A DNA stretch of 63,673 nucleotides, counting the filler, from Nemertoderma westbladi (Eukaryota > Animalia > Xenacoelomorpha): assembly GCA_032718475.1 (NCBI GenBank). It is 4 parts of 4 records of this genome, joined end to end, with 100 filler letters (N's around TTAATTAATTAA, not from the genome) between each part and the next. Parts side by side here need not be neighbours in the genome. Positions count along the whole stretch, not along the records: positions 1 to 21,315 come from JAUCBJ010007189.1; 3 more parts are not named here. One strand, 5' to 3'. A program made the position numbers and the translations under genes. How positions within the stretch are numbered: the stretch's first letter is position 1; every line of letters starts with the position of its first letter. The notes under the pieces were generated by a model. It was not told where the DNA came from. It did no database searches and saw only the letters and a program-made list of their open reading frames with translations. Shown piece by piece: positions 6,776-38,518 of this stretch.

Positions 6776-6780
6776 GTAAA

Positions 6781-6887
6781 TGTGTAATCCCGATATACTG
6801 TACGTGTTTGAAGGCCTTATATATATATCTCTTACCAGTTAGATTTATTACGCCATACTGACTTATGATTATTATACAGATTACACT
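6781..6887 (+). repeat. Gypsy 5' LTR (107 bp)
   Basis: TGTGTAATC...GATTACACT, near-identical to 19209-19317. Confidence 0.95.
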
Positions 6888-6904
6888 TGGCGCCGTGTGT
6901 AGGA
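6888..6904 (+). promoter_or_regulatory. Canonical tRNA primer-binding site (tRNA-Ser-like)
   Basis: TGGCGCCGTGTGTAGGA immediately after the LTR; its complement ends in CCA; the tRNA identity is tentative. Confidence 0.8.
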
Positions 6905-7079
6905 TACGAACCTACTACAGTACTACCTCTGTACCGGTAGGTCTTCCCTACTACGATGTACTATCTGCTGTATCTGACTGCTGCACTGACTGACACGTCA
7001 AGCTGGTAAATAGTACTATTCAATATTATTTATATTAGCCTATATTCTGATATTGGATCCATTTATAACACTCTACCGA

Positions 7080-7718
7080 ATGGCTAACGACCACCGAGAC
7101 CCCCACTCATTTATCCACCGCTGCGTTCCCCCGCCTTTGACATCGACTCCAAACAGTCGATGTGGGACCTGTGGAGAGATGAGTGGGACGCGTTCCTGGT
7201 CACGTCCGGCATGGAAAACCTGCGGACTGCTGACCCCAACAATCCACTGGACCCCACGGTATCAGCAGAACTACTGCGCGTAACGAATCGCCAACAGCGG
7301 GCCGCCCTAACCATGGCATTCTCGCGCAGCACGAACGCTATCGTGAAGGGTCTCGGCTTGTCGGCAGCAGACAACCAAAACGCCGCTACCGTGATCGCCT
7401 CCCTAGATACCCACATTAAAGGAGGAACCAACAAGCGGGTGCCGAGGAGACCCCGTAAGCGTTCCTCGTTAATCTGCGAGAAATCGTAGCCAAGTGCGGC
7501 TTCGAGGCACTCCCTTCCGCTGACGACCACTTCAATGAATGGCTCCTCGATCAGTTCATTGCGGGTTTCAGCGATAAGGAGGTGACAGAGCAACTGCTCT
7601 GCCTCCCCAGTGGCAGCTCTATCACCGCCGCCCTACACCTTGCCCAGTCCGTCTGGACCGCCCGCAAGGATGCCGCAACGATATCTGCCCCTGCTGCACC
7701 AACCCCAGTGACACCCGC
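7080..7718 (+). pseudogene. Gypsy gag, N-terminal part, frameshifted
   Basis: WDLWRDEWDAFLVTSG, LREIVAKCGF, WLLDQFIAG motifs; interrupted by element B. Confidence 0.8.
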
Positions 7719-8295
7719 TGTGACGGGATCAATGGACCCCGATTTATCCGTTGGTTATTCTATTTACGCGTCCCCGCCGTGTGTGTGTAAAAGGGTTCGT
7801 TGGATTAAGAGTTCTTGATTCGCGTATGTATAATATATAACAAGCACAGTCAATAGGATCAAGTATATGATTGAATGATGTACCGGTAAATGAGTAAAGA
7901 TATGGTGGCATTGTGGACGGTAATAGAAGTTGCCGTTCCGCCCTAACTGAACTGACTAACTAAGTAAAATGAAATGGCACAACAATTGGTAATATACTAT
8001 ACTGCCCTAGGTTGGCCATATTACTCAGCGGATGCCTGCCCCCCATTGGCTAATAACTCACTTCTCACCCTCCCATCTCTCTGGGAGTGTTTCCCCTTGT
8101 TGCTATTACTCTCTCCCTCCCGGAGGTGTAACCTCTGACCCCCGCTGTGTGTGTGTGTCCCTTTGGGGTTCGTCGCCCCGTTTATTGGGGTGATACGAGG
8201 TTGATTGGCAATCAACCTCGTACTCCCAATATTGCTTAAAGGCCCTGCTTGGCCAACTTTGTGTGGGATAGTTAGCGGAATTGAATACGCTAACA
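7719..8295 (-). repeat. Element B 3' LTR
   Basis: Direct repeat of 11065-11642, adjacent to the PPT. Confidence 0.95.
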
Positions 8296-9124
8296 CTCCC
8301 CCCCCATGCTATCTTCCCGCTGAGAAGATAGCATCCACCTATAGTGCGCTACAATTCCGCTGGATCCCGATCTACCATCGGGTGTGGGGTGGAATTATTT
8401 TCTCTGGAGCCGGCTTTCCAGGCCGCTCCCTATGGGTATGATATTGCTACCCCGTCTTGGTACAACTCTACCTATCTTGTACCAAGACATCTGGCGTCCC
8501 GTGTCGGGCCGATTGTGCGCTCCTCTCACACGACTTTTGTTTCCCCAACACCTTCACCACTAACTCCCCTCCACTCTCACTCTAACTCCTTCATACTCTC
8601 GGACCTCTTCGTCCCTCACTCTGCCTCCTGCCTCTCCCCCCCCCACGCTTGAATTGCACCCGCACTCTCTTCACACTATTACTCAACCCCCATCTCAGCC
8701 CACTTACTCCCGATGAGTCTCACCCCCCTCCTGTGCCGTCGCACTCAAGAAGTGTGATGTTGTCCAGTGTCTCGTCTGTCATAGTCAATTAGTCCCCGCT
8801 CCCAGTAGCTAATTGAGAAAGGTTGTATGACTATAGTACTTACTTCGTTTATATTTACTTGCTAAACTAATGATCCTTTACGTACGTACATACTAATTGC
8901 ACTTTTCAATTTTTTAAATATTTGAATTCATATTTAGGAGTTCGCACATCTCACGTGGTGCCTTCCAGGCATGCCACATCGAAGTTCTAGTTCATTCCAC
9001 CTGACTTCGGGAACCATCTCAACTCCTTTCCTCTGTTGTCCTACTCCCTTGGTCGTTTCTTGCCACTGCCGCTCCCTTGACTTTATCTCCCTTCAGACCT
9101 CTGACCCTCGCCGTCACCTCTTTG

Positions 9125-10670
9125 CTAATCCCGGTCGTCGACTCCTTGGGCGGTGGGCGCTGGTGTTATGAGCTCCTGGTATCGCTTCGCGGGTGGCCCC
9201 TCCGAGTGGCCCTGCTGTCTCTCCCTAGTGGCGTCCCATAGGATTACTTTCATCGCCCACGGCACGTGCTCCACCAAGAAATCTCTGAACTCCCCTCGGT
9301 TCTGTGGCATCCACCTGTCCAAATACCTTTGCGTATTTATCACCCCGGCATACGACGCGTAGGCATACCTCCTGGTAGGTAAATGGAAGTCTTCGCTTGA
9401 TAATCTCCAGGTGGGCCTCCTGATTAATATTGAAGAAACCCTACTGGAACTCCTGGGCCTTCATACGTTGCCGTGTCATGGCACCGACGTCGGCCCACTC
9501 CTCGAAGATTTTAAACTTCTCTTCGTCTTCCATCCAGTCGCACTGGCGTCCGTAGTGCCCCCGAAAGTTGCACTTCGAACATCGGTTGTGCAATTGTGGA
9601 CACGCCCCCATCCTGTGGCTCGACTCGCGGCAGTAGAGATAACTAGTCCCTTTCTGGAACCGGTACAGAGAGCTCCTTTCCTGGTGTGTTTGCCTCCCAC
9701 AGTAATCACAGCCGAGCACCAATGTCTCCCGCCCCACGCCGTCTTTCGTCCCAAGCGATCTCCGCAGTCTGTGGAGTTGCTGGTAAGCGAAATTTTGGAT
9801 GTTAGCATCCCTGTCCACGTCTATTTCCTCGCCCCTCCCGGGCATCGTCTCCCCGAATACTACCCGTGGTGCCGTCCCCGGTTGCTCGCCCAACCTGATG
9901 GTGCTCCCCGCGAAATCCATCGCCGGTTCCTCATGCACCCAGGCCCGCTTGCCAGGTCTATCCCAGAAGGCTCTCGCTCCACTGGCCGTCACCACCCTCC
10001 CGCCAACCCAGTCCGTGTCCAAGTGGCCTATCCTCCCGATGGGTGGCATCTCTCCGAACTCGTCGTCATCCTCGTCCTCTTCTGGGAGTGGCTCCAACCC
10101 CGGTGTCCCGGTGGATCAACTGTGTCCCTTCCCACCTTGGCTCTCGCCCGTGGCTCTCCATCCTTCTAGCTCTCCTAGCCTCCTTAGCGGGAGATCGCCC
10201 TCGGCGCCCGCTGGTTTGGGCATCGCCCGCGATCCTGATGTCGACTGTTTCGGCGATCCCACCATTCATCCTAATTCTCGCCCTAGAGACTCCCCCGAAC
10301 TCCCTGACGAAGTCCAACGAAGTTCGTCTAAGGCCGCCTGTTCCTCGAAGCCGTAGCTCTGCGCCCTGGCTTCCTCCTCCCTTTCTTCTGCCTCTCTCCT
10401 CTCCTGTCTAGCGATTTCTTCCAATCGCTTCGCTTCTCGTCTATCCGCCTCTAGCTGCTCCCATCTCTGATATGGCGTATCTACATCCCTGTCTACCAGA
10501 TTTCGGCAGTTATAGTACACTGACTCGCCTTTCAGCCCCGGGTGGTCTACCAGACCCTCGAAAGCCGTTTTGAAGGCTTTTCTGTAGCTCAGGGGTGACC
10601 CTGATAGCAGGAATGCCGTTGGTTCCTTCCCAATGACGACGGTCATGAATAGTTTTAGCAAACCTATCAT
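9125..10670 (-). pseudogene. Accessory CCHC zinc-finger ORF (ORF-Z) of element B
   Basis: ORF pieces 10266-10820 and 9441-10097 share one frame broken by TGA stops at 10266 and 10116; CDYCGRQTH..LYCRESSHRMGACPQLHNRCSKCNFRGHYGRQC; continues past a stop and frameshift to 9125. Confidence 0.75.
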
Positions 10671-10679
10671 TATCCTCGT

Positions 10680-10998
10680 CGCCGACGTTTCCTCTATCCC
10701 TCCGGGTCCAGCGTCGTACTGGTGGCCCCACCGTCGCCGTTCTGGTGGGCCGTCCGTCGCCCTCGGCCTGTGGCTGGCCAGCGATATCGGCACGTCGACC
10801 GCCGTCGTGTGTCGACTCATCCCTCTCTTCTCCCGACTCGTCCTCTCGTCGCAGATGGCCCCCTCTCGTTTGGACTACCGGGTCGTCCCTGGTCGACGGG
10901 TCCGGTGTCATAGGTCGGTACCGTCGCGTCGCGGCCTCGCGGATCGTTAGGTCGCCGTCCGGGGTCCGCGGCGGTGTTGTTTCTCCTTCTCGACTCAT
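10680..10998 (-). pseudogene. Short gag N-terminal remnant of element B
   Basis: MSREGETTPP..LTIREAATRRY..AGQPQAEGDGRPT.TATVGPP matches the start of gag in copy A. Confidence 0.85.
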
Positions 10999-11055
10999 CT
11001 TATCTTTATTTCTGGTGGCTGGCAGTCACAGTTTCGGGTTTCAGAGTTCTATGGT

Positions 11056-11064
11056 TTCTATTAC
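11056..11064 (-). promoter_or_regulatory. Non-tRNA PBS of B (GTAATAGAA), complementary to LTR site 11267-11275
   Basis: Abuts the 5' LTR; 9/9 complementarity. Confidence 0.75.
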
Positions 11065-11642
11065 TGTAACGGGATCAATGGACCCCGATTCATCCGTTGG
11101 TTATTCTATTTACGCATCCCCGCCGTGTGTGTGTAAAAGGGTTCGTTGGATTAAGAGTTCTTGATTCGCGTATGTATAATATATAACAAGCACAGTCAAT
11201 AGGATCAAGTATATGATTGAATGATGTACCGGTAAATGAGTAAAGATATGGTGGCGGTAGCGGACGGTAATAGAAGTTGCCGTTCCGCCCTAACTGAACT
11301 GACTAACTAAGTAAAATGAAATGGCACAACAATTGGTAATATACTATACTGCCCTAGGTTGGCCATATTACTCAGCGGATGCCTGCCCCCCATTGGCTAA
11401 TAACTCACTTCTCACCCTCCCATCTCTCTGGGAGTGTTTCCCCTTGTTGCTATTACTCTCTCCCTCCCGGAGGTGTAACCTCTGACCCCCGCTGTGTGTG
11501 TGTGTCCCTTTGGGGTTCGTCGCCCCGTTTATTGGGGTGATACGAGGTTGATTGGCAATCAACCTCATACTCTCAATATTGCTTAAAGGCCCTGCTTGGC
11601 CAACTTTGTGTGGGATAGTTAGCGGAATTGAATATGCTAACA
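11065..11642 (-). repeat. Element B 5' LTR
   Basis: Direct repeat of 7719-8295. Confidence 0.95.
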
Positions 11643-11647
11643 CCCGC

Positions 11648-13687
11648 AGCCTCGCGGGCCAACGTACCACCACGCAACCGCCCATCAGGAAACCGACGCA
11701 ACCGGAACCCCACATCGGCTTCGCGTTGCACCAACTGTTGCTACCCACCCCACGGACCCAGTGAATCCTGCCCCGGCACCAACGCCCGCTGCCGCCACTG
11801 CAACAAATTGGGCCATTACAACAGGATGTGCCCTCGCCAACGCGAGCCCGAGTTCCACGCTGCAGACGTACCACCCTCCCACCATCACACAGAGGAGGAC
11901 GCGGCCTATTCTGGCACTGCCGAGGTGTGCACGATCCTTTCAGGCACTGAACTGGTGAGCGCCCCCATCATTTCTGCCTTAGAGCAACTGGAGGCTCTTG
12001 AAACGGTGACCGTGGGCCTCCAAGTCACCAGGAACCCAAAGTTTGGTTTCAAGGAGCTCCAGTTCCTCCCGGACTCCGCCGCCAACATAACTGCCATCCC
12101 TTTCCAGATCTTCTTGGCGTTTGGTGGGACCACCGCTAACCTCCGCCTAACCAACTCGGCGATCCAACCACCCCAATTAGCCAATGGCAGTCGTTCAGGG
12201 TGGTTATTCAAAGGAGTATTCCAGGCGACCATCCAGTGCCACTCGCTGCATACAGCTTGCACCACGGAAGTCTGGGTCCTGGACAGCCTACACCAGCCAC
12301 TGCTATCCCGCAGAACTTGTTTCCTTTTAGGCATCCTCTATAGCCTGATTCTCTGTGGCGGCCAGCCACCCACTCGCAGCGCAGCCCTGCCACAATACGC
12401 ACCAACCACCAGCCACACCCTGCAGGCACAGCAGCCACCTCCAACTCCCACCACCCAGTCACGACCTCCCGTTACTGGGCCGCCACCGGCGCTGTGGGAG
12501 TCCCTCGTTGCCAGGTTTCCCCGCCCTCTTTCAGGGGTTTGCAGGGTGATGCGGGGTGGCGACATAACAATTAAATGGTGCCTGGGGAGAAACCCTTCTT
12601 CCGCTACACGAACCGTGTTATCCTCGCCAACCTCAAGACTGCCTTTGAAAAGGAGCTGGACGAGCAGGTCGCCATGGGAATCCTGGAGCCGGCAGACGTT
12701 GAGAACGACCCGAGTGAGTGGCTCAGCCCCATGGTAGTAACCCGGAAAAAGGACGGAACCTCGGTCCGGATTACAGTCGACCTCCGGGAGCTGAACCGCC
12801 ACACCGTCCGGCCCGCCTACATCGCGCCGTCCCCCTTCCAGGTTGTATCCCGCATCCCCACAACGCGCGCTGCTTCACGATCCTTGATGGACTTAAGGGG
12901 TTCCACCAGCTCGGCCTCGACATAGCCAGCCGGAAGCTGACAACCTTCGCAACCCCACATGGTCGCTACCGATACCGCCGATGGGGTGGCATGGCAGTTT
13001 GGATATGTTCAACGCCCGAATGGCCAAGGCACTCCACGGCATCCCCAACATCGACCGAATAGTTGAGGACATCCTCATCTATACGGACTCCTTAGAAGAA
13101 CATGCGGAGGCCGTTGCCCGGGTCCTCGCTGCTGCGATGCCGCCGACATTTCTATCAACCCCAGGAAAGTGCAATTCAGCCTTCCTGAAGTGAAGTTTGG
13201 CGGCTACATCATCTCACACGGCAGGTACAGGATAGACCCGGAACTTACGGATGACCTTCGCCACTTCCCGACTCCCACGTGCCGGAAGGAACTCCGCTCA
13301 TTCCTCGGCCTCGCCCAACAGCTGGGTAACTCCACAGCCGAGATCACCCAGCTGGTGGAGCCACTACAAGGCCTCAACTCCAGCCACTCAGCATGGCTGT
13401 GGCTACCTCAACACCAGAAGGCGTTTGAGTCGACCCGGGCAGCCCTGTCCAGCCCCCACTTCCTCTCTGGATTCCACCCTGACCGCCGGACAGAACTCCT
13501 CACGGACGCATCCCGCATTAACGGCCTCGGGTTCCTTCTCTGCCAGTGTGACTCAAGTGCAAACCGCTGGCTCACGGTCCAGCGTGGCTCCCGGACCCTC
13601 GCCAAACACGAGGCCAACTGGTCTGGGATGGCCGAATTGGAGGCCCTCGGTGCGGCCTGGGGGGCCCACAAGTGTCGTTACTTTCTC
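11648..13687 (+). pseudogene. Gypsy gag zinc knuckles, protease, RT and RNase H; multiple frameshifts
   Basis: CTNC..HGPSESCP..CRHCNKLGHYNRMC; FLPDSAAN; EWLSPMVV..RITVDLRELN; LDGLKGFHQ; IVEDILI; LLTDASR; AELEALG. Confidence 0.92.
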
Positions 13688-14860
13688 TGTAAAAGCTTTT
13701 GCGGACATAACAAGCCATTTTTCTCCGCAATATACCGTGTAGGTATTTTAGTGGACATAACAAGCGATTTTTACCCGCTATGTCTGCATGTGTGCTTTAG
13801 CGGACATAAAAAGCCATTTTTGCCGCAATGCGCATAATACTCTAAGGACTGGAGCTCAGATGACGACATCTATCAGCTGATTTACTGTCGACATGTAGCT
13901 TTTGGTTCTTTGTTCGGCTCAGCCAGTTCGGCCAATCAGAGCGATTTTCATTTTATGTGTGCTTTAGCCTTATGATGACCGTGCTAGGCATGTCAGTGTC
14001 AGTGTTGTATTTTTCTAAGCCCAGAACACCGGCTTAGGATTCTTCTGTGCTTCTGTAGAAGTTTCAGACTTTGGCCAGAACATTAGATGGCTTTGATTAT
14101 CGAAACGTAAAACTATTACCTGACCAACTACTGAATCAATGCAACGCAACATATCAACACTGCAACACTGCACTGCTGCATTCACCGCATTATTTTACTT
14201 CTGTTATTAATTACTGTTAATTGGTGTATATTGTTGTTATATTTGGAGAACACCGATAAAGAATCATAAAACCCCCAATCTTCTTGATTACTGAAGGTGA
14301 GAGGACAGGTTACCGGTAGCAATTGCGACTTACATTATAGTGGTTTTGTGTGTATCAAATGCTATTTCATAATCCCTACATGTGTCAGTTGCTATCCTCC
14401 TTATATATGATCAAATTCAGTGACGGTCGGCAGATCAGTGTGAAGTAGTGTGAAGTCGTGTGAGGTAGTGTGACTGGTAATAAAGCATCTCCTAAAGAAT
14501 GCGCCTTTTACGAAACTCCGTAGCCATCTAGTTGTGATTAGTATAAGTCATAACTCTGTTTTATATATTTAAAGCGCCATGTCCTAAAGGAACTGTTGAT
14601 ATTTCCCCGAAAGTGAATAATATTGTCAGAGATTATATAGTAACGATCAATCGAATAATACAGTAGGTCTGCACCGCAATAAGATCAAAGCATCCGAATC
14701 CAGTCTCCCTTAACAGTGGGTGAATGATCGCGCATAGACTGGTTTCGGCTAATGTTACTTTATGTGTACTAAATATTTGTTATAGGCCAAGGTCGATTTG
14801 TAAACAAGAGGCCACCTAAAATTGGCAGGTTAAACTGCTAAAGGTCTGAAAGCACGAACA
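13688..14860 (+). repeat. Element C 5' LTR (1173 bp; three ~50-bp gcggacataa repeats at the start)
   Basis: Colinear with 18181-18970 apart from indels. Confidence 0.88.
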
Positions 14861-14871
14861 GTAATAGTTTT
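14861..14871 (+). promoter_or_regulatory. Non-tRNA PBS of C (GTAATAGTTTT), complementary to LTR site 14109-14119
   Basis: Abuts the LTR end; 11/11 complementarity to AAAACTATTAC. Confidence 0.78.
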
Positions 14872-16625
14872 GTTAGTTTCTTTATTGCACTGTAGGCAAT
14901 AAAGTCGAGGTACCGGTCAAACGGTAAGCTGTAGGCCTAACTGCCCAACTGCCCGAACCGGTACTTAAAAGGTACAACAGTATTATTCGATTTTTGATAT
15001 TTATATACCGGTAGGTCTTGATATTTAATCAGGGACGGCCGCCCTGGTTTTTTATTGGGATTTTACTTATTTCTGTCAGTCTTATTTATCTGTAAGTATA
15101 ATATTGAGCAGAGGGCGTGTAAGCCTGCTCAGATTGTATAGATAATTTGTAGGCTGGATTGTTGTCTAGCTGTTGTTAAGTTTGAAGGGATTGCAGTGTG
15201 TGTAGAGTGTATGTCCGATAAAGTACTAGTTAGGAAAGTAGGGGCATCTTGAGTTGTAAGGTAAATCCCCCCCGAAAGAATAAGTCGTACTACTCGGTTA
15301 GAACGCATACTAACTAACCATTTCGGAGTCTGCATATACTGTAGTTTATTTAGGCTTGACAGTAGTCTGCCAGCATTTGGTCTGTATTTTGTTTGTATAG
15401 TCTGCACGGGTAGCGTAATATTTATTATTCAGAGTTTATGCAAGTATTCGCAACCTTCAAACTCCCCCAGTTTATTCCTACAGTAATTGTGCTTGTTATA
15501 CATACCGTTATAGTTAAATTAACCCCGGTACTACATCAGGGCTGCTTGGCGTAGGTAAAGACTGGTGATTTTATGCTCTAGTCACTCCAGCAGATACCGT
15601 AGTTCTTTAGCTGTTCAAGTATATTTAACTGCTGGTTATTTGTTATATAAGTACTTGTACCTAATCTAATATTTTCCGAAGGTAATTTAGTTTGTAGGCA
15701 GTATATTTGTGTTGTAAAGTGGTTAATAGGCACGTTAGCTCTGGTTGGCTGCGGTAATTAACTTCTAGGTAAGGACACTCCGGGTACATAACGTAGTACT
15801 TATAGTGCTGTAGAGCAAAAAGACTATAAGTCGTCAGACGGTGGTAATTTCTTATCTGGACAACACAGTGTATTTACTACTGCTTAATTATTTTCAAATA
15901 CCGTAGTATCCTGTCAGTTTGTAATAACCAGAAATTCTAACTCCTTGTTAGACTGGTTTGTAGATTCCCTGTAAAACTACCCTAAAATATGTACGTGTAA
16001 TTTGTCATTGTTTATTTAGAGATTGTAATCTCACCCCATAATTGTAAGTAATTAGTAGTGATAAGTAACTTAGTAAAGTAGAATTATTTGTTTTAGTGTC
16101 CAACAGGTAGCACTCCACTGAGAGCGTTTAGCTTCTGTGTAGTGACCCCCTTAACCAGAAATAATAACATTTATTTCAAATATTGGCAAAACCCTTGTAC
16201 GGGTACAAATATATTATAAATCAATTCAAACCGATTTATAAAATAGTAGGCCTGTTATACATTAATTAGTTCTTAATATCAGTTGGGCTACTGCTTAATA
16301 ACAGTAATAAAGTAAAGGAAAGTAACCTTTAAATTCAGAAATTCAGTTATTATAAAATAATTAACATTACCGGTATTTAAGGTAGGCTTATTATATATAT
16401 TTATAAATCTAGGCTGAAATTATATACCGGTATTCTGTAACTAAACCTAGTTTGTAACAATACTTATATATACTATAAGTGTATACCGGTATTCTAATAT
16501 AATATATATCGCGTTACATTGAGTAATGGTATCGGTAATTGATCATTAGGCTTACAGTGATACTGAATTACTAGACTTGCTTTAACTGTCGTTATAATAG
16601 TAGGCATTCAACTGTATAATCAAGC

Positions 16626-18103
16626 ATGGCTGACAAAAGGCAAACTCTGTCAGATAGTCTCCTAGAAACAACTGTCTGCGACTCCGACAGGAGTATTGAA
16701 CGTTTGACACCGAAGTTCAAGTCCCCTCCTACTGTAAGAAAGGTCATCCCTCCAGTAGTAGTATCAGATCCTAGACTAGTAAAGCACCGTAGGTCTATCA
16801 TAGGCACTCGGGCTCAAGTCAAGCAAGAACAAGAGGCAGCTGTTAAACAGCAGCAACATCCGAACCAAGAACTTATTTCTCAGCGGACCGATAGCTCCAG
16901 TAGTTCAGATACTGTGGAGTTGACGCCCGAGATCGGAGCAGAGATAGCAGAGGCGGTTTATTCGGATCCCCTTCTCATTCTTCCTGAAGCTGTATTCACT
17001 AGGGTATTGATTGCGGTGGAGGAACATCAAATCGATTGGGCGAGAAGTAAGCGATCAACTAAGGACAGTTATGCGGGATACACGAAGGAGGAACTGAAGT
17101 CGATTGTCAAGACGCAATGGAACTTCCCCGGACCCGGACTCCCGTTTAACTTATCGGAAGCTGCCTGTAGCCGCCTCCCGTTTAACTTATCGGAAGCTGC
17201 CTGTAGCAGCCTGCCTGTAGCTGCCTGCCGGTGCCTGAGGATGGGAGTGGTAAATTGGAGATCTATTGTGCGTATTGTAGACTCAATAACTTACACATCT
17301 TCGCAGTCTGCCCTCAATTTATGACTCAATGCCATCATTGCCAGTTTAAAGGACACACAAGTTTCGATTGCCCTTTCAACCGAGATCTAGAAAGTGTAGA
17401 CGAAATGGTTGCCCTTCACTATATTCTTGCCTGGGAAGCTAACGCAGATCTCCATTGCGAATCACGTCATCGGTACTACCCTGGACGTGCCTATGAAGGA
17501 GTCTATGCGTTTCACCCATATCTCTTTGCTTCGGTTGAGCAAAAATCTCGCACACCTAGTTACGAGTTAATGAAGCGTGTTGGCGAGAATATTTCGACCA
17601 AATTTGTTCGCAAGTACCTTAGGAATATTAATCCTAACGACCTTAATTCCTATAACTTGATCAACTTCATCCGTCAAGATCCTGAATATGGTGACTTGTG
17701 CATCAACTCGCATCCAGAACTACAAGAAGTTCATAGACGACCCTATGAATATAGAGCCCGAGAACGCGAGTTGGAAAGAACCATCAAACCGAGGAAATTT
17801 CTCACTACTCATGGTCCGCCTACCGCTCTCGTGCAAATGACCCGTCAGGGACCAGTAAGAGCTGCTGTCCTGAAACGCGCTCTAAAGGTTGTTCGACCTC
17901 ATTCCACTGAGGTTGATATCGATCAACCGGGTACCTCAACCGGCGGATACACCGACCGTAACCCTAAACCTTCCGATGCAATTGTATTGCACCCCTCACC
18001 CAGGAGTTATAGCCCTCCTAGTAAAGTGGCTCGCCCCAAAGAGAAAAGGACTCTTACTAGCCTCAAAAAACTTCGTAAACGCCGTTCACATAAGAAGGAC
18101 TAA
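16626..18103 (+). pseudogene. ORF-Z homologue (~475-487 aa if repaired) with double CCHC module; split by a 14-nt duplication
   Basis: ORFs 16626-17324 and 17231-18103 join in frame if one ctgcctgtagc.gc 14-mer is removed; YCAYCRLNNLHIFAVCPQFMTQCHHCQFKGHTSFDC; basic C-terminal tail. Confidence 0.8.
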
Positions 18104-18180
18104 TAGTTTAGAGTATTTTTGTATTTTAGAAACTGTGATTTTTATATTTTATAAACTTAAATCCCATTTTCGGGGAGTGG

Positions 18181-18970
18181 TATAAAAGCTTTTGCGGACA
18201 TAACAAGTCATTTTTCTGCAATGCGCAGAATACTCTAAAATAGCCCTGAATTTGTCCAACTACGCGACGGGAAGGAATTGGAGCTGGTGTGACGACATCT
18301 ATCAGCTGATTCTCTGTGGACGTGGAACTTTTCTTTGTTCTGCCTATTCAGCCAATCAGAGCGATTTCCCCCCTTATATCTGACAGAGGCCTATGGAAAC
18401 TCGCGCAATCTTCTTGATTACTGAAGGTAAGAGGAACAGGTTTACCGGTAGCAATTGCAACTGACATTATAGTGGTTTTTGTGTGAATTAAATGCTATTT
18501 CATAATCCCTACATGTGACAGTTGCGATCTTCCTTATATATGATCAAATTTAGTGACGGTCGGCAGATCAGTGTGAAGTAGTGTGAAAGATAATAAAGCA
18601 TCTCCTAAAGAATGCGCTATTTATGAAACTCAGTGGCCATCTAGTTGTGATTAGTATAAGTCATAACTCTGTTTTTATACTTAAAGCGCCACATCCTAAA
18701 GGAACTGTTAATATTTCCCCGAAAGTAAATATATTGTCAGAGATTATATAGTAACGATCGATTGAATAATACAGTAGGTCTACACCACAATCACTATCAA
18801 GGAATCCGAATCCAGTCTCCCAAAACCGTGGGTGAAAGGTTGCGCACAGACTGGCTTCGGCTGATTAACTCCAGTACACTAAGTAATTGATATAGGCTAA
18901 AGTCGATTTATAAACAAAAGGACAACTAAAATTGGCAGGTTAAATTGCTAAAGGTCTAAAAGCGCGAACA
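18181..18970 (+). repeat. Element C 3' LTR (790 bp, internal deletion, diverged)
   Basis: Homologous to 13688-14860 but lacks about 13975-14275. Confidence 0.88.
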
Positions 18971-19208
18971 GAGGTCGGCCCCCACCCAGCGCTGGCTCAG
19001 GCACAGCCACAAGCACCTACCCCACCTGTGGCGCCCCCTAACGGTACCCCTACCCACACCCGATCGGGGAGAACCATCAGACCTCCCCAACGCTATGCAA
19101 ATAGCGACTATAAAAAACTATCGCATACTACTGTATTAAATAAACACGTTACCAAACTCACTACAAAGCGTACTCGTAACCCCCACCCCACCCACCACCA
19201 GGGGGGTA
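18971..19208 (+). pseudogene. Gypsy pol extreme C-terminus, 3' UTR and PPT
   Basis: TRSGRTIRPPQRY is the typical Gypsy integrase tail motif; agggggg precedes the LTR. Confidence 0.8.
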
Positions 19209-19317
19209 TGTGTAATCCCGATATACTGTACGTGTTTGAAGGCCTTATATATATATATATCTTACCAGTTAGATTTATTACGCCATACTGACTTATGATT
19301 ATTATACAGATTACACT
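19209..19317 (+). repeat. Gypsy 3' LTR (109 bp)
   Basis: Differs from the 5' LTR only in the (TA)n tract. Confidence 0.95.
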
Positions 19318-19982
19318 GTAAACAATTTCATATGGCGGGTTACAGTGTTTCTTTTTGGGGCAGATCTTAGCCTACGCAAAGTTATTGGTGACCCATAGGC
19401 TCCCCTCTATTGGCTGTAACCGTAGGTAAAGTGTCGAATACTATTAGTATTGTACGAAATTACAATGTCCGAGTGGATACAGTGCATAATAGTGATTGGC
19501 TGCTCAGGTTCAAATCAGGCTAAAGGGTGTATCAATTTCGCATTGGTGTGCCCCACAACCCCCCCCCCCCCATAATAATCAACATTGACATTAAAAGCAA
19601 TGACTCGAATTAATACCGCACTGATATGATTCATATGTAATATTAAAAATAAGGAGATTATCATAAAAGTTACCGATAGATCTTGATTAATCATAAATTG
19701 ACACGTCACGTGACATATAAAGTCAGAAAGTGATTGACAGATTGATGTTAAATAATTTCAAAATTATCAATATCAAAATATATTACCGTATTATGATTTT
19801 AGTATTGGCGACAAACCAGTCTTAGTTTGAAACTCTCTTGTTCAATTTACGCTCCTATGACTCTCTAGGTCACTGATGTTAAGGCAAAGTTAGAATGTCC
19901 GAATGAATGAATTCTGAATGAATGAATTCTCCGGCGAATTTGCCACATTGCATCATTTCTTATAAGCCACTGTAAACAGAGG

Positions 19983-20136
19983 AAGGGAGATCGCTCTGAT
20001 TGGCTGAAATATATGTCAACAAATAAGATTCCTCACACAAAGGAACAGCTGGTAGATTTTGTCATTCCAACTCTGAGTTTTTTGACAGACACGTAGTTGT
20101 ACAAATTTTATAAGCCATTTAGAGTATTTAGCGCAT
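19983..20136 (-). repeat. Diverged fragment related to the C-family LTR U3
   Basis: Reverse complement atgcgc.aatactctaaa..aatttgt.caactacg..cagctg..tcagccaatcagagcgat parallels 18221-18370. Confidence 0.7.
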
Positions 20137-20269: not shown

Positions 20270-20422
20270 GTATAATACAGTAATAGACACCATCGCCACC
20301 GTTCCGGGTTTAATAGACTCTGTTGCCATCGTTCCGGGTTTAATAGACTCCGCCGCCATCGTTCTGGGTTTAATAGACTCCGTCGCCATCGTTCTGGTTT
20401 TAATAGACTCTGTCGCCATCAT
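20270..20422. repeat. 30-bp tandem repeat, ~5 copies
   Basis: Unit gggtttaatagactccgtcgccatcgttcc. Confidence 0.9.
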
Positions 20423-21315: not shown

Positions 21316-21415
21316 NNNNNNNNNNNNNNNNNNNNNNNNNNNNNNNNNNNNNNNNNNNNTTAATTAATTAANNNNNNNNNNNNNNNNNNNNNNNNNNNNN
21401 NNNNNNNNNNNNNNN
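21316..21415. other. Assembly gap with artificial TTAATTAATTAA linker
   Basis: N44-TTAATTAATTAA-N44. Confidence 0.97.
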
Positions 21416-21825
21416 TAACAAAGTATTTCCTAAAGAATACGCTTTATACTTTAATCATAAGCAGTATCGTTGCGTCTTAGTATAAGTCTTAGTTCTGTTT
21501 AAATAGATAAAGCGCCACGTCCTAAAGGAACTGTTAATATTTCCCGAAAGCCAATAATATCTGTCAGAGATTAATTATTAACGATCTATCGAATAATACA
21601 TTAGGTATACACTGCAACCTTACACTGTAATAATACAATTCAAGCATCCGAATTCAGTCTCCCGGGTGTAGATCCATCGGGTGAATGATCGCGCATGGGC
21701 TGACTTCGGCTAATGTTTTGCGTATTAGCATAAATTATTGTCGTATGCTAAAGTGGTTTTAATTAACTAAAAGACATATAAATTTTGGCAGGTTAAACTG
21801 CTAAAGGTCTTCAAAAGCGCGAACA
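21416..21825 (+). repeat. 3' part of a C-family LTR (solo or 3' LTR)
   Basis: cctaaagaat..aaagcgccac.tcctaaaggaactgttaatatttccc..ggcaggttaaactgctaaaggtct..aaagcgcgaaca; not followed by GTAAT. Confidence 0.88.
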
Positions 21826-23903: not shown

Positions 23904-24470
23904 TGTTAGCTTATCCAATTCCGCTAACCAACCCATAAAGTGAGGTTTTAAGCAATATTGGGGAACACGAGGGTGATCAATCAACCTCGTGTCACCCCAA
24001 CAAAGTGGGAGGGAGAAACATACACACAATAGAGGTCAGGGGTTACACCCCTGAGAGAGAGAGAATAGCAGGGGCGAAGGGAAACACTTCAGGGGAGGTG
24101 AAAGGGCGACAACAGGGTTATTAACCAATGGGGGGAAGGCACCGGCTGAGTAACGTAACAATGGCCAACCGTGCAGTATACATTATCAGTACAGTGTATC
24201 ATTTAGTCAGTGTGTCATTTTAGTCAGTGTATAGTTAGGTTAGTTTAGCTAGGGAAGTACCGGGACTTTAATTACCGTCCTCATTACCCGTCCTCCATTT
24301 ACTATCAACATTGTGTATCATTTATCTATATCAGCTATATTTCATCTTATATTATATTATACCCGGGAAGCTATATACAACGATCAATAAACTCTTTCAC
24401 CTTTCACACACGGCGGGGACGCATGGATTGAAAACCGGATAAACCAGGATCCTTCGTGGATCCCGTCACA
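23904..24470 (+). repeat. Element A 5' LTR
   Basis: Direct repeat of 34410-34976. Confidence 0.97.
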
Positions 24471-24479
24471 GTAATTAAA
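24471..24479 (+). promoter_or_regulatory. Non-tRNA PBS of A (GTAATTAAA), complementary to LTR site 24267-24275
   Basis: Abuts the 5' LTR; 9/9 complementarity to TTTAATTAC. Confidence 0.75.
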
Positions 24480-24539
24480 CCCGCGAGTGATTGAATCGGA
24501 GCTGCTACCCTAGTTAACTAAACTCGAGATAATAACAAG

Positions 24540-27500
24540 ATGAGTCAACCAGAGGGAATGACACCGCCTGGACCCCGGACGGAGACCTAACGATCCGCGA
24601 GGCCGTGACGAGATGGTATGGACCCACGACGCTGGTCGATACCACATCGACCACGTCGACGCTGGTCGATGCCACGTCGATAACGAGCGAACCGGCGACC
24701 CAAGATGAGGGGGACCGTCTACGAGTAGAGGAAAGCGAGTCGAGAGAAGAGGAAAGCAAGTCGAGAGGAGAGGAAAGCGAGTCGAGAGAAGGAGGAGACA
24801 AGACGGGAGAGGAGAAAGACGAGTCGACGCGGAGCGAGGGTCGACATACCAATGTCGCCGGCCAGCCACAGGCCGAGGGCGACGGACGGCCCACCGGAAC
24901 AGCAACGGTGGGGCCGCCGGACCCGGAGAGATGGGGGAGAGGTTGGCGACGAGGACGTCGGGGTCAGCGATCAACTTCAACGGGCCTACAATGCGACCCG
25001 GAAACTACTTAAAGAGACCAAGGAAGGGGCCGAGATAGACCAGGTGAAGTTAAGGAGAAGACTAGGTGAGTCGAACGAACATTTTAGTTATCTAATGCGC
25101 TTTGGGCAGAGAGAACTGGCCAAGGAGAGAGCGAGAGGGGTTGCCAACGAACTGTATGATTTATGGGAGTGTAGGGGTATGCAGCCTAGTGTAGTGTACA
25201 TAGGGCCATACTTAGTCGATGCCCGGGGAGTAAAATTAGCGGGTTGGAGAAGACCTGAGGAGGGCGAATCCGAGGTTAACCCCGAGGATTCGGTCTCATC
25301 GGTCGGAGAGAATTCCGGTTCCGGGAGGCGGGGGAGAGTTAGTAGGACGGGAAGGCGGAGAGAATCCGTCACAACCGATAAGTCTGCTACATCCTCCGTA
25401 AAAGAAAGACGGGTGAGGGAAATAAATGCGGCGTGTCATCTTGAACTGATAGCGCAAGACCAGAGAGAAGTAGAGAGACAGTTGGAGGAGGGGAAAGCGC
25501 TATTAGAGAAAGAAATGGAACTGGTTAGAGAGACTGGAGAGAGGGCCGAGAGAACCGCAAGAAGCTTCAGGGAGTGCGAGGAAATAGGGAGGAAGGAACA
25601 AGAAGAGCGTGAGGCGAGAGAGGAGAGTGAGCGTAGGGAGCATGAGGCGAGAGAGGAGAGTGAGCGTAAAGAGCGCAGGGCGGAACGTAAAGAGCGCGAG
25701 GCGAGATGAGTGGAGAGAATTGAGAGAGAGAGGGAATTGGCCGAGCAGAGTCGGGAGACAATAGCAGAGGGGAAGCGTGTGCGGGATGCTTTACATGCCC
25801 GCCTAGGGGGGCTAATTCAGTACCAGACCAAACAGAAGCGCAGACTGAAACTGGCCCAGATGGGGCTGTCAGAGAGTGGCGCTGGCTCGAGTGCTTTCGA
25901 GGAGCAAAGGGTCGAGGGAACATTTATTAGTACCCCACTTACAGGAACCGCACGACAGACCCGAGACTGGTGTGACCGTACGGGCGGGGGGGGTAATAAT
26001 AGTACTACAGTAGATGACGTTAATATTAATAGTACTGTATTGGATAATCCTAACCAAACCTTTATTGCAGGAAATACTTTACCTAGTAGTAGTAGTTTAA
26101 ATTTAAATACAAATAATCTAAATAATAATTTCAATTTAAACGTGCAAAATAACCCGAATAGTAATTTAAATTTAGAAAATAATAATAATCCAAATAATTT
26201 AAATAATCCAAACCCGAATTTACAGAACGATTCAAATAGTGTAGTCGCGCAAAATAATTTAAATGATTTTATTTCGAACGAACAAAATGATTCCGTTTCT
26301 GATATGGGTGCTATTAACGTGGACGCGTCGGAGGTGTATGACCGACAGACGGCGGCCTAGTAGGCCACGTAGTTAGTAGGAAGGGGGCGGCGGGGTTGAG
26401 CCGACCCGACGGCGGCCTGGTAGGCCACGTAGTTGGTAGGCAGGGGGTGGCGGGGATGAGCCAACCCGAAGGAGGCCTGGTAGGCCAGGTAGCAGTAGAG
26501 AGAGAAGCGGGGGTGAATAGACCTAGCCGCAGTAGAAACACTGTGTCGACTGGAGAGGGGTGCAGAAGTGAAGTAAGAGGTAGCGGCGTGATATGTGGCG
26601 AGTGGGGGGGGGGGCTACAGGAGCCCCGCAACGAGAAGTTAGTGGCAAGCGGGGGGGCTACAGGAGCCCCACAGCGGGAAGTTAGTGGCGAGAGGGGGGG
26701 GCAGAGAGTGTCCCACAGGCGTCGTCGGATAATGCGCGGGCCGAATCAGGTATACCGCAACACCCAGCGACGGAGAGTAATAGGGGGATTGCGAGTATCC
26801 CCAGCAGGGTGTGATCGAGCAGAGAGAGGCAGGTTGACGTCGCGAGAGGGCGGACAGAGCGCCGAGCCCGATCAGAAGAGGGGAGGAGAATAGTGGAGTT
26901 TAACCGGGGGGTCGACGAGAGATCTCACGAGCCGGAATACTGCACTGAAAAGAGAAGAAGAGAGGATAGTAGGAGAAGTATCGCCGCGAACGATAGGAGA
27001 GCGAGGACGGATAGGGAGCCGTCGGTAGTCGAGATGGAAAGAGAGCCATGCTGGCAGAGACAATGTAGGCGATAGGATAGCGAGGGCGATGGGATTAAAC
27101 CCGGAAGTCGCGGAATACATACCGGTAGGTAGGCCAGAAGCTGATAGGCCCATACCGGTACCAGTGCAGCAGTATGACTACAGCACGAAAGGACATAACA
27201 TATACCCAGGGGAGGGGGGAATTATTGCGGATAGGTGCATGGGCCCCAATATATTAACATCAACCCCAGTACCAAACATACCGGTGGGGGGGGGGACAGG
27301 GTGACATTCCCCCATCACAATATCAACAATATACCCCAATAGGAGCAAGAACAACGAACCCCTTGGATAAAAATAGGTCATGCGACACAGAAATATGGAG
27401 GGGGCCGCTACCCCCAATGATATACCCAAGCCAGAGGAAGGCAGGAAATAGGACGGACGGACCGCACCCAACAGGAGAAACTATGCAACATCCATCGAAC

Positions 27501-28066
27501 CCATAGGAAGCACAGGCGATGGGAATGGCCACGTTAATCGATGCGCTAAAAACTAGGATCGAATTACCACCCGTGGAACTGTTCAAATTCGATGGGAGTA
27601 GGCTGGAAGAATACCTACAGTTTCGGCGCATGTATAGTAACGAAATACTAACAAAGAACTTGACGCAGGCGGAGTGCCTAAAGTATCTGCAAGTATATAC
27701 AGGAGGCCCAGCATACGACATCGTGAGGCAATACCAGGGCATAGAGGGCGGCTTCACGACAGCATGGCGGGCACTGGACAGGGAATACGGGCACCCGGCC
27801 AAGATCATCCGGCAAACCCTGAGAGGCATAACATCGGGTGGCCTACAGGATAATCCTGTTAGTATTAAGACGTTCGCAAACAAGGTCGAGAAGGCGCTAA
27901 TCGTACTAAAGACGCTAGACGCACCATACGAGCTCAACGCGTCCAACAACATCACCACGATAGCGCAGGCACTACGCAACAAGCTGTACAATGGCTTCGC
28001 AACAAGTGGAGGAAAATCGCTTTCTCCACTCGAGATAGAAAGGGTGCGGAACCGGGTCTAGAAGAA
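24540..28066 (+). pseudogene. Element A gag: long low-complexity/coiled-coil N-terminus, then DUF1759-like capsid region; stops and frameshifts
   Basis: E/R-rich and poly-N segments; ELPPVELFKFDGS..EYLQFRRMY..AWRALDREYGHP. Confidence 0.88.
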
Positions 28067-31000
28067 ATGTCGAGCTTCTTAAACTACGAAGCCGAGTTAA
28101 TAACCGACCCATTCTATAGCGAGGATAGCCTGGGAAAGGGACCAAGAACAGATTACCATAGACCGAAACCAGAACACAACACGTCAAACGCATTGCCGAA
28201 GCTCAGGCAATCACTGCCATACGCAGCGACGCAGGGGACTGCTAGTCCACAGGTAGCCGGGGGTAAGACCACATCATGGAGCAGACAGGGGAAAAATAAC
28301 AACACAAACAAACATGACCCTAGTACGCCCAGTAGGCCGAACCCAAACAATAAGAATAGTAGGGACTTTGGTACAAATGCAATCGCAATATGCAATGCAT
28401 TGTATAAGGACGGATACGACCCAAAGAGCAAATGCCAGCTACATACAAATGCGCTTCATCAGACCATGAACTGCAGGTACTGGCAAGCATTACCCAGTGA
28501 AGATCAGGTAGAATACGCGGCGAGAAATGAGATCTGCTCGCGATGTGTGATGAGTGGACATAGAGCTAGACAATGCGAGGAAACGCCGATTAAGTTCGGT
28601 CAAAGTAAAGGCCAAATGATGGCAACGAGCACAGTAGGGGCGAAGAAGAGAGGAATTGTGCTACTTGGGGTAGTACCAGTGCGAGTGATCGGGGAAGGCA
28701 ATCGATCAGTGACCACACTGATGCTGGTCGACAGTGGAGCTGCCTTCACATTAGTCGAGAATTGGGTGGCCGAGGAGATAGGATTGAGGACAAGGCCAAG
28801 TAGGATGGCGGTAACAACAATCTCCAGCAAAGATGAGATCCTGGAGATGAGAACCGGATGGTGCGCGATAGCAGCAATAGCACCGGGATGCGACTATGGG
28901 GCGAGCATCGACCCCATCCAGGTGATAGAGTCGATAAACATCAACACCAGGCGACCAACAAACATCGAGGTCGAGCAATATAAATTCCTGGACAGTATCG
29001 ATTTCTCAATCCCAGAGGTGGACGTTAGGAAAGTGTCCATCATAGTAGGAATGGACTGCCAGACGGCCCACGAGAGAATGCAAACGGTCTTCGGCGAAGA
29101 CAGGCAGTGTGACCCGGTGGCGATTTTAACACCATTCGGGTGGACACTGAGCGGCCCAATCAAGAGTAAGATACCATTTAGGATGTCGGAGACATCAGGA
29201 TGCATGTTCGCGGGAACTATGCAGGAAATGGGTGATGAGAGAGCGGAGGAGCAGCTTAGGAGACTGCTCAGACAGGATTTTGAAGGATTAAAGGAGACCG
29301 GGGTCGGAACCTCGGTAGAAGACAAGCAGGCTCTACAGAGCGTAAAGGAGTCTATGAGGTGTGATGAGGGGCGGTATACCATAGGGATGGTATGGAAGCT
29401 ACCGAAGCTACCGCTACCCGATAATAGAGGGATGGTACTCACGAGGCTTCGTAAGTTGAAGCAGACTCTAAAACGGAGCCCCGAGAAGAATGACAGAACG
29501 ATTAAGAAGTACGTCGAGAAAGGATGGGCCGTGGAGTTACCGGTCGACGAGCCAAGCATGGACAGGACATATTACCTGCCACTCCACGTGGCTTTAGATC
29601 CGAAGAAAGGTAAACTGCGGATGGTAGTTGACGCATCAGCTAAAACCAACGGCAAATGCCTAAACGATTATCTGCTGGAGGGTACCAATATCTACAACTC
29701 GGGGATCGAGGTCCTACTTAGATTCAGGAATGGGAAACATGCCTTCACCTGTGACATAGAAGGCATGTTCAACCAAGTCCGTGTAACAGAAGAGGATAGC
29801 GATAGTCAACGATTTTTATGGTACAACGGCGACGAAGAACCGTCGACCATACTGGTGTACAAGATGATAGTACAGAACATGGGAGCCAAGTCGTCTTCGT
29901 TCACGACGACTATGGCTGTAAGAGACACAGTAAAGGGAAAGGAGGATAAATACAGCACTAGGGCCGTCGATATGATTCGACGCGGCTTCTACGTAGACGA
30001 CGGGATTGAGTCTGGAAACACGGTTAAGGAACTACTGGACACAGGGCGCGAGGTTCGCGACATCCTAAAAGGATCCGGCTTTAACCTAACCAAATTCCAA
30101 TCCAGCTTGGAGGAATTTATCAAGGCGATAGAGGACGAGAGACCAGAATCGACCATGGATAATCCCACAACAGCCAAGGGGCAGGACATGGCGAACAAGA
30201 GGATAGAGTCTCAGCAGAAGGCACTGGGAATCGTGTGGAATAGAGAGACAGACGAACTGAAGTACCAGTTGAGACAGGAGGGCGCAGACATCCACACAAA
30301 GAGGGGCTATGTGTCGTACATAGCAAGGATATACGATCCCCTAGGCCTAGCATCCCCACTACTAGTCACGGGGAAACAGATACTCAAGAGAGTATACAAA
30401 CTGAAGGATGAGTGGGACGTAGAAGTACCAGAAGAGATCAGGAAACAGTGGTGCAAGTGGACAGAAGGTTTGGGGCAGATGGGAACATACAGCATGCCAC
30501 GAGTGTATTTCCCGGATGGGGACATGACGAACCTGGATCTGCACATGTTCTCCGATGCGTCACTAGAGGCATACGGAGCGGCACTCTATTTAGTACAACG
30601 AGGCTACGTGGCTGCGAGGCTAGGAGTTAGGGCCACAGCCTACATAATGGACGCTATTCCCAACATAGTGGAGACACACTACTGGACGGATTCCATGGTA
30701 GTGCATGGCTGGCTACATAACGAGAAAACGAGATACCCTATATTCGTCGCAAATAGAGTGGACGAAATAAGGGCGACGACAGAACTAGAAAGGTGGCACT
30801 ACTGCCCTACGGACGAGAACCCTGCGGACTTGTTATCGAGGGGTGTGGCACGCCACACTTTCTTAAAAAAGGAAGTATTGTGGCAACATGGGCCACAGTT
30901 TCTGAGCGACAAGGAGGCCTGGCCACCGATGAGAAAGGTGGACCCGGGCTCAGGAGAAGCAGTATTAGGGGGAGAAGAGGGAGATTCAGAGGGAGAAGAG

Positions 31001-32473: not shown

Positions 32474-32664
32474 ATAGGTGGCAAGATAGGTGCGAAAAAC
32501 AGGAAGACCTACAGGAGGGCTGTAGGGAAGTGCTGTCTACTAGAAGGGGCACCTTAGAATGGAGTTAGAGAGGAGTTTAGTCGTCCACGTTTTGGACTGA
32601 GGGGGGTGGGATTTAGGGCGAGACGCCCTTCCCACACATAAAATAAAAATAAAATAAATAAAAA

Positions 32665-32716
32665 TTAGAGTCAGAGTTAGTTAGTTAGTTAGGAGGTACG
32701 TAGTACCGAGAGTTAG

Positions 32717-32790
<74 letters not shown>

Positions 32791-33400
32791 GAGTTAGTTA
32801 GGAGGTACGTAGTACCGAGAGTTAGAGTTAGTTAGTTAGTCAGGAGGTACGTAGTACCGAGAGTTAGAGTTAGTTAGTTAGTTAGTTAGTTAGTTAGGAG
32901 TTAGTTAGGAGGTACGTAGTACCGAGAGTTAGAGTTAGTTAGTTAGGGGGTACGTAGTACCGAGAGTTAGAGTTAGTTAGTTAGTTAGGGGGTACGTAGT
33001 ACCGAGAGTTGGAGTTAGAAGTAGTAAGAGGGTACGTAGTACCGATAGTTAGTGGAGTTGGAAGTAGTAAGAGGGTACGTAGTACCGATAGTTAGTGGAG
33101 TTAGAAGTAGTAAGAGGGTACATAGTACCGTTAGTTAGTGGAGTTAGAAGTAGTTAGTAAGAGGGTACGTAGCACTGTTAGTTAGTAGAGAGAGTTAGTG
33201 GAGTTAGAGGAGTTAGTAAGAGGGTACGTAGTACCGGCTAGTAAGAGTAGAGTTAGAGGAGTTAGTAGGGGGGTACGTAGTACCGGTTAGTAAGAGTAGA
33301 GTTGGAAGTTAGTAAGAGGGTACGTAGTACCGGCTAGTAAGAGTAGTAGTTAGTTGTAGAACTAGTTAGTAAGAGGGTGCATAGAGCACCGTTAGTAGTA
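32665..33400. repeat. Compound (TTAG)n / ggtacgtagtacc tandem array inside element A
   Basis: Pure (TTAG)n at ~32718-32790; repeated gaggtacgtagtaccgagagttag units. Confidence 0.93.
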
Positions 33401-33529
33401 AGAATTAGTGATAGGGGGGTATAAAATAGTATATAGTAAGAGATAAAAGAGCACAATATATCATAGAAGTAGTAGCCAGAAAGGTAGGTAGGGTTAGTAG
33501 CACAAAATTTAAAATGAAAATTAAGGATA

Positions 33530-33760
33530 TTAGAATCACCTCCGAACTACAGAAGAGCCTTCAAGGCGGCCTTCAAAGGTCTGGTAGAACACCTGGGGCT
33601 GAAGGGCGAGTCGGTGTAATACGCCAGCCAGCATCTAGTAGACAGGGAGGTGGATAGACATCACATGGGCTGGAAGTGGATAGATATGGGGAGAAGCGAC
33701 TGGAAGAAGTCGCCAGGGGAGAAAGGCCGAGAGAGAATGAGGCGCGTTATGTAGACGAGC
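33530..33760 (+). pseudogene. Remnant of the ORF-Z N-terminus downstream of pol in A
   Basis: SPPNYRRAFKAAFKGLVEHLGLKGESV*Y..LVDREVD matches SPLSYRKAFKTAFEGLVDHPGLKGESVYY..LVDRDVD of B. Confidence 0.85.
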
Positions 33761-34409
33761 ATGTAATATAATATATGATAATAATAGCCTTATAATAATT
33801 ATATAAGTAAACCACGTATGTATATTATAAAGTACGTACCGTAGTCAAGCACAACCTTTTCCAATTAGCTACTGGGACTGGGGACTAATCGACCATGGTA
33901 CTGTAAGTCACGGACGAGACGCTGACGACATCATACTTCTTGAGTGCGACGGCACGAAAGGGGGGTGAGGCTCGTCAGAAATGAGAGGGTGAGATAGGGC
34001 GAGATACGAGTAATAGAGTGTGGAGTGCGGAGTGTGGAGAGAGTGTGGGCGCAATTCAAATGTGGGGGGGGGGGAAGTAAGAGGCGGGGTGAGGGACAAG
34101 GAGGTCCGAGAGCGTGTGAGGGCTAGGGTGAGAGTGGAGGAGAGTTAGGGCGAAAGTGTTGGGGAAACAAAAATTGTGTGAGAGAAGCGCACGATCAGCC
34201 CAACACGGGACACCACATGTCTTGGTACAAGATAGGTAGAGTTGTACCAAGATGGGGTAGCATTATCATACCCATAGGGAGCGGCCTGGAAAGCCGACCC
34301 CAGGAAAATAGGCCCACCCCACACCCGATACTAGATCGGGATCCAGCGGAATTGTAGCGCACTAGAGGTGGATGCTATCTTCTCACCGGGAAGATAGCAT
34401 GGGGGGGAG

Positions 34410-37516: not shown

Positions 37517-37539
37517 GTGAATTCCCGCCTAGGCTGGTT

Positions 37540-38500: not shown

Positions 38501-38518
38501 TGCTGTTATAGATAAGAT

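Follow-up and report, generated by a model that had tools for sequence, protein, structure and literature searches.

A pol-less LTR element of Nemertoderma westbladi with two candidate self-primer pairs, and its putatively self-priming BEL/Pao neighbours

How might a retrotransposon that carries no recognisable polymerase, and whose primer-binding site (PBS) is not of the tRNA type, begin its reverse transcription? This question is raised by element C of Nemertoderma westbladi, which lies with its neighbours A, B and D in the window, that is, in the whole stretch of 63,673 nucleotides analysed here (Table 1). No pol domain was found in the element by ORF and Pfam scans, and an Rfam search over positions 13600-19100 gave no match at E 0.1.

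Pairing between the PBS of element C and its own 5' LTR

An earlier note on this DNA had claimed that the PBS directly behind the LTR end GAACA is complementary to a segment of the 5' LTR over 11 nt, with one possible additional G-U pair. The complementarity was confirmed: PBS1 and site 1 form 11 Watson-Crick pairs, extended to 13 by two G-U pairs rather than one, and their free energy was calculated at -12.4 kcal/mol for the core and at -15.5 kcal/mol with a bulged extension. Of 20000 sequences obtained from the 1173-nt LTR by dinucleotide shuffling, 10 reached 11 Watson-Crick pairs, so that the chance probability of such an 11-mer is P=0.0005, or P=0.001 if the PBS is allowed to start 0-4 nt off; the 13-pair version with G-U is weaker evidence (P=0.036). 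GTAATAGTTTT and AAAACTATTAC occur once each on the + strand of the window. Among 108 tiles of 1173 nt taken from both strands of the window, the value of 11 was found only in the LTR of C, the other tiles reaching 8 at most (the PBS-bearing tile aside), and the PBS of C forms at most 8 pairs with 12 foreign LTRs. The end GAACA is placed by three C-type copies, and PBS1 follows it with an offset of 0 (0-4 in the relatives described below). The PBSs of C and A differ at letters 8-9, and each LTR matches its own PBS. A spliced match for the PBS was found in none of C, A and B, all three of which pair directly. The sequence CTTCTTGATTAC at 14280-14291 was rejected as a partner of PBS1 (5 pairs).

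Table 1. Features of element C and of the neighbouring elements, in coordinates of the window (WC, Watson-Crick pairs)
Feature	Position	Strand	Remarks
Host gypsy-type element	6780..19318	+	TGG PBS; 97% LTRs; A and C nested inside
Element A	7719..11642	-	Related to B, no pol; 9 nt of PBS paired to own LTR, 202 nt from its end
Element C	13688-18970	+	Pol-less LTR element: 5' LTR 1173 nt, 1.76-kb leader, one ORF, PPT, 3' LTR 793 nt
C 5' LTR, long type	13688..14860	+	TG...CA, 1173 nt; ends set by alignment to 18178-18970 and 21416-21825
Predicted upstream promoter	13932..14003	+	CCAAT 13932-13936, degenerate TATA-like 13970-13977, TCAGT initiator-like 13993-14003
316-nt block	13960..14275	+	Long LTR type only, from LTR alignment; contains site 1; parts covered by diverged contig pieces, in all four runs
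Site 1	14109..14119	+	AAAACTATTAC, complement of PBS1, 741 nt from LTR end
5' splice-site-like motif	14297..14303	+	Present in both C LTRs
Second TATA-like motif and AATAAA	14402..14484	+	14402-14409 and 14479-14484; predicted only
Site 2	14649..14661	+	Complement of 14980-14992, 13 WC
PBS1	14861..14871	+	GTAATAGTTTT, non-tRNA (no TGG); adjoins LTR end GAACA
119-nt segment	14861..14979	+	Flanked by two AACAGTA repeats; two predicted hairpins; terminal LTR-end-like ACAACA
PBS2-like sequence	14980..14992	+	Behind LTR-end-like ACAACA
Sole C ORF	16626..18103	+	Two frames, break near 17200; tandem Cys/His knuckle
C PPT end	18172..18177	+	GGGGAG, then TG; read from sequence
C 3' LTR, short type	18178..18970	+	793 nt; without site 1, site 2 kept
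U3-like relative	19947..20136	-	75%; aligned to short LTR type through block junction
Third C-type LTR end	21416..21825	+	81% alike, cut by assembly gap; site 2 kept, terminus GAACA
Element B	23904..34976	+	BEL/Pao, pol present; 9 nt of PBS (+4 past bulge) paired to own LTR, 195 nt from its end
Element D	58397-63673	-	Relative of B with BEL/Pao domains; cut by window end, PBS beyond window

The LTR of C shows, as had been noted before, no homology to those of A, B and D, the local alignment scores (24.5-35.5) being comparable with the shuffle means (27-31). The long R-U5 of about 750 nt that was proposed from the pairing fares less well: the distance from site 1 to the LTR end is indeed 741 nt, but this is more than three times that of the longest relative (range 74-233 nt), and a rival pair exists at 199 nt. 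Moreover, AATAAA lies 359 nt downstream of site 1, versus 11-110 nt where it was found in the relatives and in B. Concerning the transcript, the CCAAT/TATA spacing of the predicted upstream promoter recurs in the 3' LTR of C and in the relative at 20 kb; the TATA at 14402 is a cleaner motif, but it is located downstream of site 1 and a start there would exclude this site. RNA folding recovered helix 1 in 3 of 12 folds, for which the RNA began at 14100 or at 14109, whereas no fold from 13997 or 14060 contained it; the helices of A and B are likewise poorly predicted (1/6 folds).

Two LTR types and a second pair

The earlier note had held that C-family copies lacking the match would count against self-priming, and this is partly the case: the 3' LTR of C reaches 5 nt at best against PBS1. 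Site 1 is absent there because the 316-nt block is replaced by 23 nt. The two LTRs are not sisters. They are about 90% identical (506/561 in the shared 3' part and 131/156 in U3), whereas the LTRs of the host gypsy element, in which C is nested, are 97% identical (105/108; for comparison, 568/577 in A), and a nested element cannot predate its host. The frame of the host halts in RNase H and picks up again in the putative integrase tail. That no target-site duplication was found at the flanks of C is in agreement with LTRs that are not sisters. Thus, C most likely derives from two insertions that later recombined; the match of site 1 is nevertheless still cognate, since the 5' LTR and PBS1 are contiguous.

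As to which LTR form came first, the U3-like relative (read from 20136 to 19947) fits the short form across the block junction, which hints that the block might have been gained. Diverged contig pieces span the block as well as the passage from the LTR end through the 119-nt segment, which they join on both sides, into the PBS2-like sequence (four runs, at most three samples); hence, the long form represents a lineage rather than a one-off. Among the 40 variants listed out of 370, none falls within site 1 or either PBS, a count that proves nothing. In the contig cover, the segments 13935-14229 and 14879-14996 fall below their flanks, depth being no measure of copy number. Two candidate introns were ruled out, namely the 316-nt block, which has no AG end, and 14861-14980 as a GT-AG intron, which has no pyrimidine tract; moreover, copying would eliminate any intron located downstream of the cut. 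A strong splice-donor-like motif is present at 14297 and 18427, in the short LTR approximately 35 nt past the TATA-like motif, and it may be the source of a subgenomic RNA for the ORF located 2.3 kb downstream.

When 1715 leader positions were scanned against the LTR, a single run of at least 11 pairs emerged, i.e., that of 14980-14992 with site 2 (13/13). Positions 14861 and 14980, which are separated by 119 nt, each belong to an AACAGTA repeat. Tests made post hoc gave this pair a chance probability of 0.003 within the initial 200 nt of the leader, of 0.043 if the entire leader is considered and of 0.00015 for positions behind ACA. The pairing is found in all three C-type LTRs (with two G-U in the 3' LTR and with 12 Watson-Crick pairs in the third copy), site 2 lying 199, 198 and 226 nt from their ends (202 in A and 195 in B for the corresponding sites); its conservation, however, does not exceed that of its surroundings, since 11/13 identical positions are matched by 32% of windows. 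Helix 2 is predicted with P 0.88-0.97, and the fold containing it puts 8 of the 11 PBS1 bases in a loop; helices 1 and 2 cross, and the folding method cannot show both together.

As to which of the two pairs would prime C, we consider it rather likely that site 1 is used in this long-LTR lineage. Site 1 was chosen for the long type because PBS1 is the only candidate adjoining the end common to the three copies. The short type would need another pair, since site 1 is missing there. It seems, instead, rather unlikely that pair 2 is the working one in the long type, with an LTR ending at ACAACA (14979), PBS1 being part of U5 and the match of site 1 a relic or a chance occurrence: the core of pair 2 is longer and more stable (13 Watson-Crick pairs, -16.4 versus -12.4 kcal/mol), its helix was obtained in 9 of 9 folds, site 2 is kept in all three LTRs and, the true sister 3' LTR being missing, the end of the long type is not directly visible; however, both other C-type copies terminate at GAACA, an 11-nt match lying exactly at that end would be left unexplained (P=0.0005), and site 2 would then be 318 nt from the LTR end, outside the range of the relatives.

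Neighbouring elements and BEL/Pao relatives

Element B carries the Pao peptidase A17, DUF1759, DUF5641 and integrase domains, which assign it to BEL/Pao and not to the Tf1/sushi chromoviruses, and it is about 35% identical to elements of cnidarians, echinoderms, molluscs and fish. A TGG PBS is missing from A and C and, despite its BEL/Pao domains, from B as well. The self-pairing of A and B has a chance probability of 0.008 and 0.021, respectively. The LTR of D has no ATTAC core at the homologous place. The single ORF of A fuses sequence resembling the 5' ORF of B with sequence resembling the 3' non-pol part of B, followed by tandem knuckles (10408-10606 and 33528-33716); B may have a decayed accessory gene past pol.

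The window also contains further decayed fragments similar to the 5' region of B (1481-3386, -), an unbroken frame of 1284 aa with a Pecanex C-terminal domain (41965-45816, -) and an ORF cut by a gap (54951-55754, +), presumably related to CYTH/thiamine triphosphatase. Fragments of non-LTR retrotransposon RT are located at 579-1523, 20407-21316, 48749-50530 and 55800-57150, and a second gypsy pol fragment at 57200-58390, where D is inserted. Tandem arrays occupy 4501-5152, 32667-33400, 37424-40875 and 54090-54460 (periods of 68, variable, 22-24 and 22 nt), and the assembly gaps are filled with the TTAATTAATTAA spacer.

B was aligned with 42 homologues, and this alignment led to 508 confirmed loci in metagenome contigs, the best 78 of which were analysed; the same type of alignment against viral contigs gave 0/420 confirmed. 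LTR-like repeats were found in 36 of the 78 loci; of these, 11 allowed the LTR end to be set and 12 no more than its start, whereas 13 were left out. All 10 relatives with a set LTR end that entered the shuffle run (10 of the 11) pair over 10-15 nt with their own LTR, a result that no more than 4 out of 1000 shuffles equalled in any one case; eight of them pair only across a GT-AG junction and two directly. The eleventh (L058) pairs directly over 12 nt and shows the GTAAT/ATTAC core seen in C. Of the relatives with the start only, 8/12 pair over 10-15 nt (P at most 0.02, 100 shuffles) and 4/12 do not; since three of those 8 duplicate other loci, the non-redundant relatives amount to 16. None of these has a PBS of the tRNA type, and 12 pair only across a predicted splice junction and 4 directly, it being understood that the splice-site rule was set after junctions had been spotted by eye, that two LTR lengths are approximate and that splicing is predicted. 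The PBSs are diverse and match their own LTR better than any other, save for a related trio with a common PBS. In the RT tree, the direct and spliced forms are interspersed, forcing at least three changes, and B lies on a long branch, its place being unsure.

In the 12 relatives with split pairing (L001, L006, L007, L017, L019, L023, L026, L044, L051, L066, L073 and L077), a predicted GT-AG intron of 72-426 nt within the LTR splits the complement of the PBS, the downstream exon supplying 4-7 nt of it. In the 3' LTR of L001, a TATA lies approximately 36 nt before the donor, which gives a first exon of about 5-6 nt; judging from this arrangement, the spliced L001 primer would comprise the initial ~12 nt of the transcript, similarly to Tf1. 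L023 and L066 also exhibit LTR-to-leader matches of 11 and 10 nt, possible counterparts of helix 2.

On the whole, self-priming in the lineage of the neighbours (the BEL/Pao element B and the 16 relatives) is well supported as a prediction from sequence. The earlier proposal that C shares the priming of its neighbours holds as far as the cognate pairing of the 16 relatives and the A-like PBS prefix are concerned, and falls short in the 3' LTR of C, which lacks the match; we regard it as very probable that the C family self-primes.

The source of the reverse transcriptase that C would borrow is probably BEL/Pao. C and A have in common the PBS letters 1-7, the knuckle pair with its linker and the GGGGAG-TG junction at the PPT, which is the same in A, B and D; the tandem knuckle resembles that of the ORF of A (15/40 identical, E=4e-7 pairwise), although the motif is generic, that of A also matching the host gypsy element (E=0.002). 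For the ORF of C, there was no Pfam match, DUF1759 included, the homologue search gave 0/353 candidates, and the atlas returned only generic CCHC proteins (best 0.84, below the lead threshold of 0.9). A search for an autonomous partner with a C-type LTR, made with a 26-nt pattern of the C LTR, found 0 matches in viral and prokaryote genome contigs. It would be improbable, in our opinion, that C self-primes while serving a helper outside BEL/Pao, be it a Ty3/gypsy element of Tf1/sushi type or one as yet unknown: the lack of pol, of LTR homology to A, B and D and of ORF homologues other than generic ones would suit such a helper, but the PBS prefix identical to that of A, the PPT junction and knuckle pair described above, and the TGG PBS of the gypsy element actually present in the window do not.

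Very improbable is the idea that both matches arose by chance in AT-rich DNA, C being primed by an unrecognised tRNA fragment or being a dead chimera. In its favour are the chimeric, post-insertion origin of this copy, the poor prediction of helix 1 and the post hoc discovery of helix 2 (P=0.043 for the leader as a whole); it has to face, on the other hand, two separate low P values for the pairs of C, the cognate pairing of 16 relatives and a C without TGG.

A tentative scheme of primer formation

The scheme towards which we lean, on balance, is that of a pol-less C that borrows the RT of BEL/Pao and self-primes, with pair 1 in the long type and with pair 2 acting as a stem there and as the primer in the short type. 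Transcription of C would start near 13995, leaving a leader of about 110 nt before site 1; the segment 14109-14119 of the 5' LTR RNA would anneal to PBS1 in the long type, and RNase H would cut after C14119, thus placing the 3' end of the primer at the LTR end, as in Tf1. Pair 2 would form a stem around the PBS in the long type and would represent the primer pair of the short-LTR subfamily, for which the PBS2-like sequence is predicted to lie directly past GAACA. In the relatives with split sites, only the spliced RNA would present the primer; the LTR intron, being located upstream of the cut, would be recopied from the 3' LTR and might thereby persist, and its loss might have given rise to the direct form of A, B and C.

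More tentatively, C could record a primer switch, with its two complete pairs 119 nt apart, site 2 serving the short LTR and site 1 the long one, within a BEL/Pao lineage that might be a broad one, having dropped tRNA priming and building most of its primers through splicing of an LTR intron by the host.

In retroviruses, U5 pairs with the leader to form a stem around the PBS; the predicted helix 2 of C is alike, with the difference that the leader arm of C itself resembles a second LTR end followed by a PBS. As for known self-priming, the PBS of Tf1/Tf2 of Schizosaccharomyces pombe is complementary to 11 nt of the transcript of its own LTR, and an RNase H cut releases the primer, which in Tf1 consists of the first 11 nt of the RNA (accessible part of PMC7175516). 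C resembles these Ty3/gypsy elements of the Tf1/sushi type in having a PBS complementary, beyond chance, to about 11 nt of its own LTR, and differs from them in the predicted ~110-nt leader, the 741-nt R-U5, the second pair, the absence of pol and the BEL/Pao neighbours. Self-priming has also been predicted from PBS-LTR complementarity for Tcn1 chromoviruses and for plant TAR copia elements (Houba, Osr-1) (accessible part of PMC6317226); these belong to other superfamilies and hosts than C, and splice-built primers or double pairs are not mentioned in that part of the text.

For Belpaoviridae, an 18-nt PBS for tRNA-Arg or tRNA-Gly and LTRs of 0.2-1.2 kb have been reported, replication being "poorly understood" (PMC8742986). 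B and D fit this family by their BEL/Pao domains; the 1.17-kb LTR of C is within the range, its TG...CA ends and PPT are present, and its PBS prefix, PPT junction and knuckle pair are shared with A. The difference is that a TGG PBS is missing from A, B, C and the 16 relatives, whose PBSs are complementary to their own LTRs. In the accessible text of the Sinbad paper and of the BEL/Pao survey (PMC554778, PMC3118150) no passage on PBS, tRNA or self-priming was found, nor in that of PMC8220671 and PMC3601003 anything on self-priming of BEL/Pao. The literature searched contains no report of self-priming in BEL/Pao, although subscription papers, Repbase notes and supplements may have it; relative to this literature, the double self-primer pair is likely to be new.

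If this reading is correct, there would be a marine lineage of self-priming BEL/Pao elements, mostly priming across a splice junction, in which host splicing is tied to the start of reverse transcription, and this would also explain the failure of PBS searches on these elements. C, in turn, would show that unrelated LTRs can retain one AC/GT rule at the primer end, and that a PBS and its primer, although bound to change jointly, may be exchanged through a state with two pairs.
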